The notes: a model not told the origin generated them from the letters alone. DNA of 31,902 nucleotides from a virus (IMGVR_UViG_2925939204_000002); one strand, 5' to 3'. Shown: positions 3,197-31,902, numbered from the stretch's first letter. Numbers and translations: made by a program.

Positions 3197-4390
3197 ATGG
3201 CCACTAACTACCATCACGGTGTAACCGTCACGGAAACCACCGACCTTAGCACGATGATCACCGACATTGATTCGGCGGTGATCGGCGTTGTCTGCACCGC
3301 TGATGATGCGGACGAAACAGCGTTCCCGCTGGATACCCCTGTACTGATTACCCGCGTGGCTAACATGCTGGGCAAGGCAGGTAAAACCGGCACCCTGTTT
3401 ACCACCCTGAAAGCGATTTCAGACCAGACCAGCCCGCAAACCATTGTGATCCGCGTTGCTGATGCTGCAAATATCGAACCGCCAGAAGGCGGCACCGCAC
3501 AGACCCAGGATCAACTGGTTATTGGCGGCACCGATGCAAACGGGCGCTTTACCGGCATGTACGCGCTGCTGTCTGCCGAAATGCGCGTAGGTGTGCGCCC
3601 GCGTGTACTGGCTGTTCCAGGGCTTGATACGGAAGCGGTAGCCGCACAACTCGGCGTCATTGCCGAAAAGCTGCGCGCGTTTGCTTACGTGGCAGCGAAC
3701 GGTTGCAACACAATCGCCGAAGTGAAGGAATACCGCGAGCAATTCTCCCAGCGTGAAATGATGGTTATCTGGCCTAATTTCATCTGCTACGACACCAACG
3801 CCGGGGCTAATGCCACCGTGCCCGTGGGTGCCCATGCTGTTGGGATGCGAGCCAAAATCGACGCAACGCAGGGCTGGCATAAAACCATTTCCAACGTGCC
3901 CGTTAATAACGTGCTGGGGATGGATCGGGATATCTATTTCACGTTGCAGGGCACCGATACCGACGCCGACGAACTGAACGCAGCAGGCGTTACCACGCTG
4001 ATCAAGCAGGACGGCTACCGCATCTGGGGATCGCGTACCTGCGACGCGGAAACGTATATCTTCGAAAGCTATACCCGAACCGCGCAGATAGTTGCGGATA
4101 CCGTCGCCGAAGCCCATTTCGCCTATGTTGATAAACCGCTTACCCCGTCGCTGGTAAAGGACATTGTGGACGGCATCAATAAGAAGCTGACCTCATACGT
4201 GACGGCTGGCAAGCTGCTGGGCGCCCGCTGCTGGTATGACCCGGAACCGAATACCTCGGAAACCCTGCGCAATGGTCAACTGACCATTAAGTACAACTAC
4301 ACCCCTGTTCCACCGCTGGAAAATCTCAGCCTGGTACAGGAGTTCACCGACGAATATTTCGCTACGTTTTCCAGCGCAGTGAATAACTAA
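3197..4390 (+). CDS. Contractile tail sheath protein (P2 gpFI family)
   Basis: 397-aa product, size and N-terminus MATNYHHGVTVTETTDLS consistent with gpFI; followed by tube gene. Confidence 0.9.
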   Translation: MATNYHHGVTVTETTDLSTMITDIDSAVIGVVCTADDADETAFPLDTPVLITRVANMLGKAGKTGTLFTTLKAISDQTSPQTIVIRVADAANIEPPEGGTAQTQDQLVIGGTDANGRFTGMYALLSAEMRVGVRPRVLAVPGLDTEAVAAQLGVIAEKLRAFAYVAANGCNTIAEVKEYREQFSQREMMVIWPNFICYDTNAGANATVPVGAHAVGMRAKIDATQGWHKTISNVPVNNVLGMDRDIYFTLQGTDTDADELNAAGVTTLIKQDGYRIWGSRTCDAETYIFESYTRTAQIVADTVAEAHFAYVDKPLTPSLVKDIVDGINKKLTSYVTAGKLLGARCWYDPEPNTSETLRNGQLTIKYNYTPVPPLENLSLVQEFTDEYFATFSSAVNN

Positions 4391-26946: not shown

Positions 26947-27122
26947 ATTTGAACTACATCCCCTACTTTAACGGCTTTGGCTTCCTCTTCTGATTTCTTC
27001 AGAATTGTGGTTATTGACTCCCTTCCATAAGCTGTTACTTTCGCCTCAACCAACCAATACGGCACAATCTCGCCGCAACTCACGCTTATGATTTCAACGA
27101 TCCAGGCGTCTATAAGATTCAT
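26943..27122 (-). CDS. Small hypothetical protein (59 aa) translationally coupled between dam and A
   Basis: Hand translation MNLIDAWIVEIISVSCGEIVPYWLVEAKVTAYGRESITTILKKSEEEAKAVKVGDVVQI; its ATG overlaps the dam stop and its TGA overlaps the A start codon (ATGA). Below the ORF-track size cut-off. Confidence 0.35.
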   Translation of the reverse strand: MNLIDAWIVEIISVSCGEIVPYWLVEAKVTAYGRESITTILKKSEEEAKAVKVGDVVQI

Positions 27123-28093
27123 TAAAAAGCCTCCTGATCGTCAAACTCGCCCGCCGCAACCATCGCGTTGTAAGTCGCATCACCCATCACGGCGCCACAA
27201 TCAGGGCAACCGCCGCCATAACGCCCGCAGCAGTCGCAGACAGGCAGCACGCCGATCACTTCTTTGGCCTTCTGCCGGTTGTCTTTGTTGGTGCTGACGG
27301 AACGTTGCACGCTGATTTCGTGCATCTTGAAGGGCTGATAAATCGCGCGGGTGGCTTCGGTGTCGCTGTTGGAAATGACGACCTTCACGCCATGCTTACG
27401 GTTAACTTCCAGCAGTGCCTGGACTAACTGGCGGTGGTTGTCTTCCGTGAATGGTTCGGTGTGGTATTGGGTAAAATCGGCTGTTTTGCTTTCAGGCAGG
27501 TAAGGCGGATCGCAGTAAACGAGAACATCGCCACCCGTGACGACCTGTAGAGAACGCTGGAACGGCGCGCAAAGAAATATTGCCTTTGTATCGTTGGCCT
27601 TTTCGGCAAACAGGCATATTTCATTTTCAGGAAAGTAGACGCTCTTATACTTGCCAAACGGCACGTTAAAGCCGGTCTTCCGGCTGTATCGGCATAAGCC
27701 GTTATAGCCGTGGCGATTCAGATACAGGAATTGAGCAGCGCGCATAATGCACGCCATTTCAGCGACATAACGCAACCCACCGCTTTTTACCGTACCCACC
27801 TGCTTATTGAACGCGGCGCGGACTTCGTTGTATCCCTGCGGGCTGTTCTTACTGTTGAACAGTTCGCGGGCCGCATCGATCACTAAGTCCGGGTAACGAG
27901 TGACTTCCCGATACAGGTTAATAAGGTCCGGGTTGATATCAGCCAGCACATAGCGGCGGTATTCAGTCGCCAGAAATACCGATGCTCCGCCTACGAACGG
28001 TTCGATCAGGCAGTCGGCTTTAGGAAGATGCGGCAGCAGGTCAGGGAGGACACGGGTTTTACCCCCTGCCCATTTGATGAACGGGCGGATCAT
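27122..28093 (-). CDS. DNA adenine (N6) methyltransferase, Dam family, with Cys-rich C-terminal extension
   Basis: 323-aa product; FVGGASVF AdoMet-binding region and DPPY catalytic motif; C-terminal CDCCGRYGGGCPDCG cluster. Confidence 0.85.
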   Translation of the reverse strand: MIRPFIKWAGGKTRVLPDLLPHLPKADCLIEPFVGGASVFLATEYRRYVLADINPDLINLYREVTRYPDLVIDAARELFNSKNSPQGYNEVRAAFNKQVGTVKSGGLRYVAEMACIMRAAQFLYLNRHGYNGLCRYSRKTGFNVPFGKYKSVYFPENEICLFAEKANDTKAIFLCAPFQRSLQVVTGGDVLVYCDPPYLPESKTADFTQYHTEPFTEDNHRQLVQALLEVNRKHGVKVVISNSDTEATRAIYQPFKMHEISVQRSVSTNKDNRQKAKEVIGVLPVCDCCGRYGGGCPDCGAVMGDATYNAMVAAGEFDDQEAF

Positions 28094-28349: not shown

Positions 28350-28532
28350 TTACTGGTGATCCGCTGATTGGTTAGCTGACTTGATGGCAGGCCAGACAAG
28401 GAGAAGAAGAGCGCCAACGAAGAAGGCGTCGCCAATCACCGAAAGCAGGTAGCTGGTGAAATCCACTGCTACGACCATGAAGGCCAACAGCAGGGCCAGC
28501 GCCGGACGTAGTGAATCCAGCACGTGCAGCAT
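28350..28532 (-). CDS. Small hydrophobic protein (60 aa), predicted two transmembrane segments
   Basis: ALALLLAFMVVAVDF and FFVGALLLLVWPAI hydrophobic stretches; ATG overlaps the stop of the upstream TerB-like gene. Confidence 0.4.
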   Translation of the reverse strand: MLHVLDSLRPALALLLAFMVVAVDFTSYLLSVIGDAFFVGALLLLVWPAIKSANQSADHQ

Positions 28533-28966
28533 CAGAGATAATCCTCAACACGCAGCCCCAGACGGCGCCCGACCTCTTCCAGCACCTTCTGTTCTTCTGG
28601 TTCGATCTGGCCGTCCGCTTCGGCGATAGTCAGCATGTTGACGAAGACTTCTTCGGCTTCTTTCGGATCGTTTTTGATGTCGTCGATTTCGCGCAAAATG
28701 TTCATGCGGCCAACGCGGAAGCCAGCTTCAAGCTGTTCCGTATAGCGGTTGATGGTGGATGTGATCTCATTGCCGAAATGCGCAAGGCGCGGGTTAGAGC
28801 GGATAAGCTGATCCAGCTTGCTGGTTTCTTCTTTTTCGATCTCGCCATCGGCGGCAGATACCAAAAGGCAACCGCCGACAATAGCTTCCATCAGATCGCG
28901 ATTTTCTACTTTCTTAAGTTCAACTTTTGCCGCTGCTACTTTTTTTCCAAACAGTTTATTAAACAT
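28532..28966 (-). CDS. TerB-like domain protein (about 144 aa)
   Basis: Internal ATG at 28966 with AAGGA RBS; duplicated A(A/E)ADG(E/Q)IE(K/P)EE motifs typical of TerB-fold proteins; AT-rich codon usage. Confidence 0.55.
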   Translation of the reverse strand: MFNKLFGKKVAAAKVELKKVENRDLMEAIVGGCLLVSAADGEIEKEETSKLDQLIRSNPRLAHFGNEITSTINRYTEQLEAGFRVGRMNILREIDDIKNDPKEAEEVFVNMLTIAEADGQIEPEEQKVLEEVGRRLGLRVEDYL

Positions 28967-29059
28967 GCTATTTATCCTTTTTAGGATGAGTGAAAGCGCC
29001 ATCACTTAATTAAGTGACGACAGTGAAGACTGTTTTTAATTACTATTTAACTGGCGTTG

Positions 29060-29531: not shown

Positions 29532-29700
29532 GGCGCGCCACGTCTTTGGTTATTTTCTTAATCAGCTTTTTATCCCTGATAATAAACTCGCCGCTATTGG
29601 TGCGAATCATGAATCCCGTTTGCATATTTTTTAAATGGGTGTCCAGAATATTGTTACATTCACGCACCCGGTTTTCGTGGTTGGCTGTTTTCTGGCTCAT
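29497..29700 (-). CDS. Hypothetical protein (67 aa) directly downstream of cox
   Basis: ATG at 29700 with GAGGT RBS 7 nt upstream; sequence MSQKTANHENRVRECNNILDTHLKN; occupies the P2 orf78 position. Confidence 0.4.
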   Translation of the reverse strand: MSQKTANHENRVRECNNILDTHLKNMQTGFMIRTNSGEFIIRDKKLIKKITKDVARHVDGELLKLGM

Positions 29701-29710
29701 CGCGATAACC

Positions 29711-29992
29711 TCAAAGACCGATCCACAACAACCACGCGTCGCGCTGTTCTCTCGGACGGTTGTAATAGGCGTCACGCATTGCGCGGTTGAACTCAGGAAT
29801 ATAGATCCAGTTCTCAGCGCGGGCGCCCAGGCTTTCCGGGTTCTTCCACGGGATGATCGGCAACTTACCGTCTTCAATCATGCTCTTAACCGTGGCGGGC
29901 TTCTTACCGATCAATTCGGCAAATTTTGGGTATGGAACCGCGTCAACAGCGTGACGCACTTCAATGAACCCCTCTAACTCTTTGTCTGTCAT
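29711..29992 (-). CDS. cox: Cox-like early regulator / excision directionality factor
   Basis: 93-aa product; IPYPKFAELIGKKPATVKSMIEDGKLPII ... WIYIPEFN ... RDAWLLWIGL aligns with P2 Cox; divergent from C. Confidence 0.8.
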   Translation of the reverse strand: MTDKELEGFIEVRHAVDAVPYPKFAELIGKKPATVKSMIEDGKLPIIPWKNPESLGARAENWIYIPEFNRAMRDAYYNRPREQRDAWLLWIGL

Positions 29993-30082
29993 AGAATTAC
30001 CTCTAATTGATTGTTGCCGGGATTTTTTCTCACGCCCCGGCGCGTGTTACCCTTGTAGCTCTCACACTAATAGGGCAAAAAA

Positions 30083-30322
30083 ATGGACGAATTTAAGGGC
30101 GTTTTTCCTCTACCGATTACTGACCTTAAAGGTCTTAAATTCGACGCCAAGACAGGCGAATTACAACTCGATGTAGTGCTTCCGCACCCTGCTGGTGATA
30201 TTCCTCTGCGATTGCAGTTTTCAGCAGGGGTAACACAATCACTTGCATTGAACTTAGCGAGGACACACAAATTTCTGGACGAGCAACTCGAAGGAACACC
30301 AGTGACAAACGTTCTGCAATAA
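30083..30322 (+). CDS. Hypothetical 79-aa ORF inside the cox-C switch region
   Basis: ORF MDEFKGVFPLPITDLKGLKFDAKTGELQLDVVLPHPAGDIPLRLQF; no family recognised; RBS weak, so coding status uncertain. Confidence 0.35.
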   Translation: MDEFKGVFPLPITDLKGLKFDAKTGELQLDVVLPHPAGDIPLRLQFSAGVTQSLALNLARTHKFLDEQLEGTPVTNVLQ

Positions 30323-30552
30323 CCCGCAGAAAGCCACGTTTTTGACTCCCCTTAATCTGGCGGAATCTCATATGTAAGGCTCCGCCCGATTCTTTCTCTC
30401 CCTCATGTTTCATAACCATTTGTGCTAATCTCCGCATTGGCGCTAGGCGCTTATTTCGGCTTATAACTGCCTAAATTGGCGGTTATGAGTCTGGTTCAAT
30501 TGGTTCCGAGTTATGAACCAGTTGAGTGAATGCTAGATCACAAGTCGGAACC

Positions 30553-30852
30553 ATGTCAATGATCGTATCTGAAAAAATAAAGGCGATTCGAACGGCTGAA
30601 GGACTCAGCCAGAATCAATTTTGCAAAATCATGGAGATACCAATTAGCACCTTGAAAAAATTAGAGGGGGGATATAACGAACCTGGCTGGACAACACTGA
30701 TGAAACTCACCCAGCACCCACTATTTGAAAAGTACACGCTTTGGCTAATGACTGATAAGACCGCTCCGCAAGCTGGTCAAATCGCACCGGCTCTCGCACA
30801 CATTGGGCCAGAATCAACGGAATCAGACCTCTCCGAGAAACAAACTGGTTAA
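30553..30852 (+). CDS. Immunity repressor C (P2 C family)
   Basis: 99 aa from ATG 30553: MSMIVSEKIKAIRTAEGLSQNQ ... KYTLWLMTDKTAPQAGQIAPALAHIGP aligns along its length with P2 C; upstream int, divergent from cox. Confidence 0.8.
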   Translation: MSMIVSEKIKAIRTAEGLSQNQFCKIMEIPISTLKKLEGGYNEPGWTTLMKLTQHPLFEKYTLWLMTDKTAPQAGQIAPALAHIGPESTESDLSEKQTG

Positions 30853-30921
30853 CTATCTATAAACACTACATTTTCACCATCTGCTACCAAGATGGAGAAA
30901 TAAACGCCGGAGGGCTTTCTT

Positions 30922-31902
30922 ATGTCGATTAAGAAGCTCGAAGGTGGTCAATATGAAGTGGACGTATGGCCGCGCGGACGTAACGGAAAACGTATCCGCA
31001 GGCGATTTGAGAAGAAACAAGAGGCAGTTCTTTTTGAGCGTTATGTATTAGCCAACGCCGACAAAAAAGAATGGCTGGGCGCGAGCGTTGACCGCCGCAC
31101 CTTAAGCGAGTTGTTAAATACTTGGTGGCTGCTATATGGACAGACTCAGGAAAATGGCGAGATTGAAAAGCGGCATCTGAATAAAACAATCAGGGCGCTT
31201 GGTGATCCAGCCGTTAACCGACTGAACAAGCGAATGATTGCACAGCACCGTAGCCAACGGCTGGAAGACGGTATCAGCGCAGCAACGATCAACCGGGATA
31301 TTTACCGCTTGTCCGGGATGTTCAGCACGTTGATAAAGCTGGAAGAGTTCAGGAAGGAAAACCCCTGTAAGGGTCTGGAACCACTGAAAGAAGCACCGCC
31401 AGCTATGACCTACCTCGCCAAATCAGAGATCAGCAAATTGCTGGATACTCTGACCGGCGACGATCGACGCGTAGCACTGTTATGCCTAAGCACCGGCGCA
31501 CGCTGGGGCGAAGGTAGCACGCTGCGAGGCGAGCAGGTAAATCACGGGCGCGTGACGTTTCTTAAGACCAAAAACGGGAAAAAGCGCACGGTTCCGATAT
31601 CGGAAGAACTGGAGAAAGAGATCAAGACCAGCGACACTGGGCCACTGTTCAAAGTTGACTATGAAAACTTCTGCGAACGGCTCAGACAGGTTAAGCCCGA
31701 TTTACCACGCGGGCAGGCCACGCATGTGCTTCGGCATACATTTGCAAGCTGGTTCATGATGAACGGGGGGAACATTATTGCGTTACAGCAAATTCTGGGG
31801 CACGCCAGCATACAACAGACGATGGTTTATGCTCACCTTGCACCTGATTACCTGCAACACGCAGTAACGTTAAACCCTCTCGGCGGCGGGCTGGCGGTGT
31901 GA
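30922..31902 (+). CDS. int: Tyrosine site-specific integrase (P2 Int family)
   Basis: 326-aa product with catalytic region HVLRHTFASWFMMNGGNIIALQQILGHASIQQTMVYAHL (conserved His/Arg and Tyr); GGAGGG RBS; stop codon is the last triplet of the window. Confidence 0.9.
   Translation: MSIKKLEGGQYEVDVWPRGRNGKRIRRRFEKKQEAVLFERYVLANADKKEWLGASVDRRTLSELLNTWWLLYGQTQENGEIEKRHLNKTIRALGDPAVNRLNKRMIAQHRSQRLEDGISAATINRDIYRLSGMFSTLIKLEEFRKENPCKGLEPLKEAPPAMTYLAKSEISKLLDTLTGDDRRVALLCLSTGARWGEGSTLRGEQVNHGRVTFLKTKNGKKRTVPISEELEKEIKTSDTGPLFKVDYENFCERLRQVKPDLPRGQATHVLRHTFASWFMMNGGNIIALQQILGHASIQQTMVYAHLAPDYLQHAVTLNPLGGGLAV

Follow-up and report, generated by a model that had tools for sequence, protein, structure and literature searches.

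The window analysed here, a stretch of 31,902 nucleotides (nt) of viral DNA (IMGVR_UViG_2925939204_000002), ends with the immunity end of a P2-like prophage, where the genes are arranged in the order cox (minus strand), ORF79 (plus), C (plus) and int (plus). The present study is concerned with the 560 bp between cox and the immunity repressor gene C (29993-30552) and with the open reading frame (ORF) of 79 amino acids (aa), ORF79, which is found therein. ORF79 is probably an autonomous cargo gene, a so-called moron, which entered, by insertion or exchange, a variable slot in an immunity region of the P2 type, namely between a block holding the candidate promoter Pc together with the Cox operator and the start of cox. 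As far as can be judged from sequence, a lysogeny-expressed moron, one of two roles that had been proposed for the gene in an earlier reading of this DNA (the original prediction), is the interpretation that fits the anatomy best. The coordinates of cox, C and ORF79 given at that time and the extent of the gap hold, as does the observation that the interval is larger than that of P2, in which the annotated gap between C and cox measures 114 bp. The alignment of the repressor with P2 C begins at residue 1 and takes in the entire 99 aa of both proteins (45% identity), and therefore the start of C at 30553 is correct and the gap comprises 560 bp; the start given in RefSeq is 30559, two codons downstream.

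The slot between the start codon of cox and a conserved block at 30421-30484 is polymorphic, and at least three different cassettes use it. It is empty in Enterobacter phage phiT5282H (100-bp gap) and in E. coli EcPF16 (192-bp gap), both of which share the cox of the window. Among 5,426 complete E. coli genomes, five carry ORF79 in the slot and 21 carry an unrelated ORF of 78 aa (WP_032969836.1); ORF79 was also detected in Citrobacter and in IMG/VR contigs. A third gene set occupies the slot in the Salmonella phages SEN4 and SEN5, with a gap of 884 bp between cox and C. In some 30 E. coli prophages the match to the window ends at 30046, and the region is 100% identical to a prophage beside cpxP in E. 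coli AR_0128 and AR_0118, for which RefSeq lists ORF79 as a hypothetical protein. ORF79 was found together with three different P2-type C alleles. The comparison of related switch regions, which had been recommended in order to see whether insert and ORF are conserved, gave a divided answer: the ORF is conserved and displays a coding signature, but the insert is not universal.

The other occupants of the slot were inspected as well. The cassette with WP_032969836.1, located in a prophage of E. coli 81009 (L004, 3294-3720), takes the place of window positions 29993-30420 and is encoded on the same strand as ORF79. It possesses a homologous upstream region with the inverted repeat, the motif TGgTATTCT and a similar 5' untranslated region, and its downstream hairpin is partly conserved. 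Since these flanking signals are shared, both cassettes can be regarded as one expression platform with different cargo; that the ORF of L004 might be a divergent member of the ORF79 family was ruled out (hhalign probability 0.1%). In SEN5 (L015, 708-1593) the slot holds SEN5_33, a minus-strand gene of 158 aa, in addition to ORFs of 60 and 38 aa. SEN5_33 begins at a conserved ribosome-binding site and ATG (MVMKHEG...) that it has in common with an antisense ORF of the window, which is treated below; it yielded no family matches and, lacking similarity, was rejected as a paralogue of Cox.

ORF79 is a real protein-coding gene under purifying selection. A search of 5.8 billion proteins retrieved only a handful of relatives, one of them 99% identical (Citrobacter) and four of 80 aa with 52-67% identity (Salmonella, Lelliottia and metagenomes), and further copies at 95% and 68% identity were present in IMG/VR. 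Frame, stop codon and length are kept in all of them, with one in-frame codon indel. The ratio of non-synonymous to synonymous substitution rates (dN/dS, Nei-Gojobori) is 0.09 for the closest lambdoid pair (L013 and L010) and 0.27-0.30 for ORF79 of the window against L006 and L012. Substitutions are ranked by codon position as 3 > 1 > 2, and the 13 differences from the copy with 95% identity (L025) are distributed 3/0/10 over the three positions, nine of the 13 being synonymous. About seven more distant relatives of 72-96 aa came to light in a profile search of 1.84 billion representatives; they have in common a strand, KTGEL, a second strand, RLxFS and a helix. No sequence of the PDB matched ORF79 below E 0.1, tblastn recovered nothing from 50,697 phage records or 72,556 plasmids, and a scan of 185,579 species-representative genomes revealed no relatives. 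Across hosts and phage types, the synonymous rate dS in the last 28 codons (30238-30322) is 0.15-0.45 versus 0.8-1.7 in the first 52 codons, hence 2-5 fold lower, which would be explained by recent recombination in the 3' third or by constraint on the nucleotide sequence.

The signals found around the gene (Table 1) are those to be expected of a self-contained unit, as far as they can be predicted. The upstream module of ORF79 aligns with TTGCCA/TTCCCA-N15-TGgTATCCT in the lambdoid copies and with TGgTATTCT in L004, in all cases 29-32 nt before the ATG, and the extended -10-like motif is positionally conserved in six loci. The arms of the inverted repeat in this module covary, reading GCCGGG-N14-CCCGGC in P2-like copies and GCCTG-N14-CAGGC in lambdoid ones (L006, 3932-3956; L026, 2933-2957); the repeat could represent a binding site for a regulator or a hairpin of the antisense early transcript. 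The present ribosome-binding site of cox, GAGG, is the complement of 30000-30003. At the other end of the cassette, the hairpin at 30307-30343 was overlooked by a simple terminator scan because of its interior loop, and in the lambdoid copies clean predicted hairpins followed by a T-run are situated at the same place.

The functional switch itself seems to be compact and P2-like, with a length of about 140 bp (about 30421-30560). In a consensus scan the early lytic promoter Pe was the sole promoter-like match in 29900-30650. Its -35 hexamer is the reverse complement of ATG-TCA-A at the start of C, and the annotated Pe of P2 shows the same hexamer in the same position. Pe is thus predicted to carry its -35 on the start codon of C and to fire towards cox. 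Of the four GAACCA motifs near the start of C, the two direct copies (30515-20 and 30548-53) are 33 bp apart and lie on either side of the -10 of Pe; GAACCA or TGGTTC occurs four times in 30492-30553 versus 17 times in the remaining ~31.8 kb. Other C alleles have direct repeats of their own at this place, namely two copies of ATGGTAGAGAT spaced by 33 bp or two copies of AGTCACT-N7-ATGACC spaced by 31 bp, as would be expected of allele-specific operators. The operators had originally been assigned to a repeat-rich tract just upstream of C. For the GAACCA cluster, which is operator-like, this assignment is supported, whereas the ATTGGCG pair (30436 and 30475) is located within a block whose conservation follows the cox allele rather than the C allele, and is therefore more likely a part of the Pc/Cox side than of the C operators.

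This block of 64 bp (30421-30484) is kept in every relative regardless of C allele or cassette and goes with the cox allele. In the insert-free phiT5282H and EcPF16 it directly adjoins the ATG of cox, and it holds the ribosome-binding site and the start codon which cox uses in insert-free phages. We infer that it combines the Cox operator and Pc with the site at which translation of the first early ORF begins. The candidate -10 of Pc, TAAATT (30472-30477, plus strand), reads TATATT or TAAACT in relatives and thus corresponds to a conserved hexamer TAnAnT, and its distance to the -10 of Pe amounts to 52 bp, compared with 49 bp in P2, whose two promoters are arranged face to face. TATAAC at 30463-68 was ruled out for the same function, since relatives have TGTAAC or TACACC in its place and a spacer of 20 bp would be required. 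The assumption that the gene is placed between the two switch promoters had to be abandoned, because Pe (30559-30530) and the putative Pc (~30472-30477) are both to the right of ORF79. ORF79 thus appears to lie upstream of Pc and antisense inside the Pe leader, outside the switch, and therefore presumably neither of the two switch promoters can express it.

In the predicted features that lend themselves to testing, the switch corresponds to the C/Cox type of P2, with Pc as a candidate. Cox (48%) and C (45%, full length) are orthologous to those of P2, the gene order int-C / cox is the same, the -35 TTGACA of Pe extends over the start of C, and direct repeats flank the -10 of Pe like O1 and O2 in P2. 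It differs from P2 in that Pc of the latter is 18-37 bp away from the ATG of cox, whereas here ~430 bp and an opposite gene intervene between the Pc block and cox. The operator repeats are spaced by 33 bp instead of 22 bp, and the Pe leader reaches ~530 nt.

Diverged homologues of ORF79 with 80 aa (ORF80) were discovered in five lambdoid prophage contexts, not in P2-like phages. There, ORF80 lies 250-290 bp from the stop codon of a CI-type repressor gene, convergent with the repressor and opposite to the early-left genes, and the five repressors occur with or without an S24 peptidase domain. In L006 the 255-bp gap between ORF80 and the repressor includes three OR-type operator sequences, which repeat those of the Cro-side operator, and among them a minus-strand promoter, TTGATT-17-TAAAGT; comparable minus-strand promoters were recognized in L010 and L026. 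From the P2-like and lambdoid layouts it follows that in both phage types the gene is located just downstream of a repressor-controlled lytic promoter and head-on to it. The lambdoid prophages of Salmonella represented by L006 also possess a 148-aa gene of the ECs1072 family (3323-3769; NCBIfam NF033230) with its own terminator, immediately upstream of ORF80, on the same strand and antisense to the early-left operon. A more distant relative of ORF79 resides in the cI-int cargo region of another P2-like element. Two others with ~30% identity (L018, 5001-5219; L019, 5001-5222), both from Celerinatantimonas, lie on the chromosome as conserved genes, flanked by sodB and a gene for a xerD-like recombinase, and the fold family is therefore not limited to phages.

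A mechanism can be proposed on these grounds. The cassette would supply the 79-aa gene together with a ribosome-binding site, a promoter of its own of the extended -10 type and a terminator-like hairpin, and would sit on the opposite strand in the ~530-nt leader of Pe, leaving the switch at ~30421-30560 intact. During lysogeny ORF79 would be transcribed from its own weak promoter, while C (or the lambdoid repressor) holds Pe (or the lambdoid promoter PL) shut. Upon derepression the strong lytic promoter would read head-on through ORF79, which would then be silenced by collision and antisense RNA, so that the position itself might confer lysogeny-specific expression and ORF79 would not have to be tuned to one repressor. 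The product would be a small soluble protein, probably an intertwined dimer, of benefit to the lysogen. Promoter activity, lysogeny-specific expression, dimerisation and biological role are all deduced in this scheme, in which a lysogen-expressed accessory factor is the best guess.

Several observations weigh against an autonomous cargo gene of this kind. The promoter motif by itself is not enriched in the window, and the lambdoid copies have a stronger -10 and a stronger Shine-Dalgarno sequence than the TACCCT and AGGG of the window. Pc was placed by geometry and conservation alone; its -35 is poor and was missed by the consensus scan, though the annotated -35 in P2 is also poor. With regard to function, ORF79 matched no family in Pfam, PHROG or NCBIfam, and PADLOC gave no match for ORF79, three of its homologues and the other occupants of the slot, in accordance with the unknown family originally reported. 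Furthermore, the distant relatives are chromosomal genes in non-phage contexts, and for this reason a benefit to the lysogen is a guess.

Another point on this side is an open frame on the minus strand. Shifted by two relative to the codons of ORF79, it is open over 87-145 codons in every phage locus examined, extending from just after the lytic promoter through the 3' flank, which is not homologous between loci, and over three-quarters of ORF79/80. Five such flanks together contain four stops in this frame, versus 23 and 12 in the other two minus-strand frames, and it remains open there for 27-85 codons versus a shuffle mean of ~15-17 (per-locus P 0.009-0.16). Fisher's combined P is about 2e-4, assuming independence of the loci, whose number is small and some of which are related. 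Four of six loci have, 70-95 nt beyond the stop of ORF79/80, an ATG with a Shine-Dalgarno-like sequence in front of it; in the window the start (GGAG-N9-ATG at 30419) is found at the position of the ancestral ribosome-binding site of cox. In the chromosomal relatives of ORF79 the frame is not kept open. The openness is statistically supported, and a cargo gene with its own signals leaves it unaccounted for.

These data would fit a sense/antisense gene pair, in which the early lytic transcript (from Pe, or PL in lambdoids) translates an overlapping ORF of about 94 aa (30419..30138). Either the act of translation would matter, by protecting or processing the long antisense leader or by clearing the duplex of sense and antisense RNA, or a fast-evolving small basic protein would be made at lytic onset. 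The low dS in the last 28 codons of ORF79/80 may be related to the antisense frame as well, or else to recombination. On the other hand, dN/dS of the antisense frame is 1.1-3.9 versus 0.1-0.3 in the plus frame, so the sequence of an antisense protein is not conserved, and the AF2 model of such a product reached a predicted local distance difference test (pLDDT) score of 45; by these two values the 100-aa minus-strand ORF (30135..30437) was ruled out as a true gene. Stop depletion within ORF79 is marginal when codons are permuted within the gene (P 0.04-0.3). The idea that the entire Pe/PL leader is shielded from Rho by translation has lost weight through the G-richness of the leader RNA, which makes it a poor substrate for Rho loading, and through the absence of a long antisense ORF over the L004 cassette and over the 148-aa neighbour in L006. 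All in all we regard the gene pair as unlikely, and the same applies to ORF79/80 as a two-strand unit, composed of a lysogeny-expressed gene and an opposite frame which is selected to be open, though not in its sequence, and translated from the early lytic transcript. If true, such a unit, conserved in P2-like and lambdoid phages alike, would be a device to carry opposite cargo behind a lytic promoter or to let the switch determine whether the cargo is on or off.

The second role originally considered for ORF79, that of an additional regulator of lysis and lysogeny (an antirepressor, or a modulator of C or Cox), has lost ground and seems improbable. At least eight different repressors of three architectures accompany ORF79/80, whose C-terminal third is almost identical throughout, and no covariation with the repressors is apparent. 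No LexA box (CTGT-N8-ACAG, up to 1 mismatch) is present in 29993-30560, close phage relatives lack ORF79, and the distant relatives between xerD-like and sodB genes in Celerinatantimonas are ordinary chromosomal genes. Given the number of unrelated repressors (at least eight) next to which homologues stand, the missing LexA box and the sister phages that do without the gene, a dedicated switch regulator is disfavoured and portable cargo is favoured. That the extra DNA is non-coding spacer and ORF79 a chance open frame, as its shortness and missing family annotation might suggest, is refuted by the comparative data, since length, frame and stop are kept across six contexts, dN/dS is 0.09-0.30, a third-position bias exists and the fold is predicted with confidence, the opposite of the lack of conservation and coding signature that such a spacer implies.

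Morons of lambdoid phages are units of promoter, gene and terminator between conserved genes which are expressed from the prophage, and P2 carries the lysogenic-conversion genes old, tin and fun(Z). ORF79 resembles both in its presence/absence polymorphism, its predicted promoter-like and terminator-like signals, its transfer between phage types and its lack of a role in the core cycle; it differs in being placed in the leader of the early operon, head-on to a repressor-controlled lytic promoter. Accessory or defence genes beside prophage repressors are also represented by rexAB of lambda and by the BstA-type slot, where they are co-oriented and co-transcribed with the repressor. By analogy, the position directly beside the immunity repressor and the probable expression in the lysogen are shared with these, whereas ORF79/80 is situated across the operator/promoter region, convergent with the lytic promoter, and had no defence match in PADLOC. 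From SOS-controlled antirepressors (186 Tum and the Gifsy GfoA type) it is distinguished by the missing LexA box in its region and the missing specificity for a cognate repressor. Taken by its sequence features, ORF79 can be described as a moron of a new small-protein family that faces the lytic promoter from within the early leader of a P2-type switch, a placement which follows the same logic in lambdoids. No description of a gene in the slot between Pc and cox was found in the literature on P2 accessory genes. Published hotspots are gpA-gpQ, the tail region, int-att and, coarsely, the interval from integrase to primase (PMC9122126; PMC13586616, section 24), and the sole remark of an earlier review is that the C-cox spacers of new immunity classes are too variable to align (PMC3448106, section 5).

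The C/Cox switch of P2, a textbook example of a compact genetic switch, is represented here by a natural variant that tolerates a foreign cassette of 430 bp between its promoters and the first early gene. It offers a natural system for two questions, namely how head-on transcription may link the expression of a cargo gene to lysogeny and what a long antisense leader does to early gene expression. That lambdoids carry this protein too, oriented in the same way towards the lytic promoter, points to a position-dependent cargo logic. The practical consequence is modest, given the rarity of ORF79 in complete E. coli genomes.

The AF2 single-chain model of ORF79 (pLDDT 81) consists of three strands and a helix, and ORF79 with its homologues defines a new family of small proteins, weakly COMM-like in predicted fold and a candidate for a lysogen phenotype. 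The resemblance to the COMM domain is weak and its scores are marginal, PUR-alpha/Whirly repeats scoring nearly equal, and the Pfam profile COMM_domain did not match ORF79 at E <= 1. Compared with COMMD and prokaryotic COMMD-like proteins (PMC13392464), ORF79 shows no sequence similarity and lacks the N-terminal helical domain, for which its 79 aa are too short. By sequence it does not belong to the COMM-domain family, and the likeness of the modelled fold may serve as a lead.

Table 1. Features of the immunity end of the window, with positions counted from its first nucleotide.
Feature	Position	Strand	Basis
cox, for an excisionase of the Cox family that also represses Pc; first of the conserved early genes	29711..29992	-	Pfam Phage_Cox 2.1e-23; phrog_272 7.9e-39; 48% identity to P2 Cox
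cox-proximal 54 bp common to the ORF79 cassette and the unrelated L004 cassette	29993..30046		alignment to L004
Inverted repeat GCCGGG-N14-CCCGGC around a -35-like hexamer	30016..30041		sequence and alignment
Putative ORF79 promoter TTCTCA-N15-TGtTACCCT, extended -10 type	30027..30053	+	alignment with upstream regions of homologues
ORF79, gene of an uncharacterised small-protein family, predicted beta-beta-beta-alpha fold	30083..30322	+	homologues, dN/dS, AF2 model
Antisense open frame, 94 codons from ATG 30419	30138..30419	-	kept open, protein not conserved; AF2 pLDDT 45
Terminator-like hairpin overlapping the ORF79 stop codon, followed by UUUUU	30307..30343	+	fold -12.8 kcal/mol, z -4.05, 0/200 shuffles as good
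Second hairpin GGCGGA...TCCGCC, followed by a pyrimidine-rich run	30354..30391	+	fold -15.1 kcal/mol, z -1.98; partial conservation in the cassette of L004
Conserved block, inferred cox-side half of the switch (Pc, Cox operator, first early translation start)	30421..30484		alignments; abuts cox ATG in L003 and phiT5282H
Predicted C-allele-specific operator region, four GAACCA motifs	30492..30553		30492-97 and 30501-06 inverted; 30515-20 and 30548-53 direct
Pe, predicted early lytic promoter	30530..30559	-	-35 TTGACA 30559-30554, 18-nt spacer, -10 TAGCAT 30535-30530
C, P2-type immunity repressor	30553..30852	+	phrog_147 8.7e-38; HTH_3; 45% identity to P2 C
Integrase, prophage end	30922..31902	+	Pfam Int_N and Phage_integrase; adjoins cpxP in E. 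coli AR_0128

Some minor observations were made on the annotation of the surrounding genes. The C start aligned with P2 (30553) is part of the -35 of Pe, and the RefSeq start at 30559 is two codons late. The 106-aa C of the SZQ1/Citrobacter type (L002, 3823) is probably over-extended, because its second ATG follows AAGGAG inside the operator repeat. No structured RNA of Rfam was matched at E <= 1 within 29600-31000. At 27122-28093 (minus strand) the window has an intact ORF of 323 aa for a Dam-type methylase with a Cys-rich C-terminal tail; the counterpart in AR_0128 (L001, 615-1394) is listed in RefSeq as a pseudogene without the C-terminus, and in Citrobacter a 323-aa product is called. In the early operon, genes of the TerB family and of DUF3927 (28532-29005 and 28350-28532, minus strand) are missing in the relatives EcPF16 and 81009, and their position is another variable cargo site of this operon.
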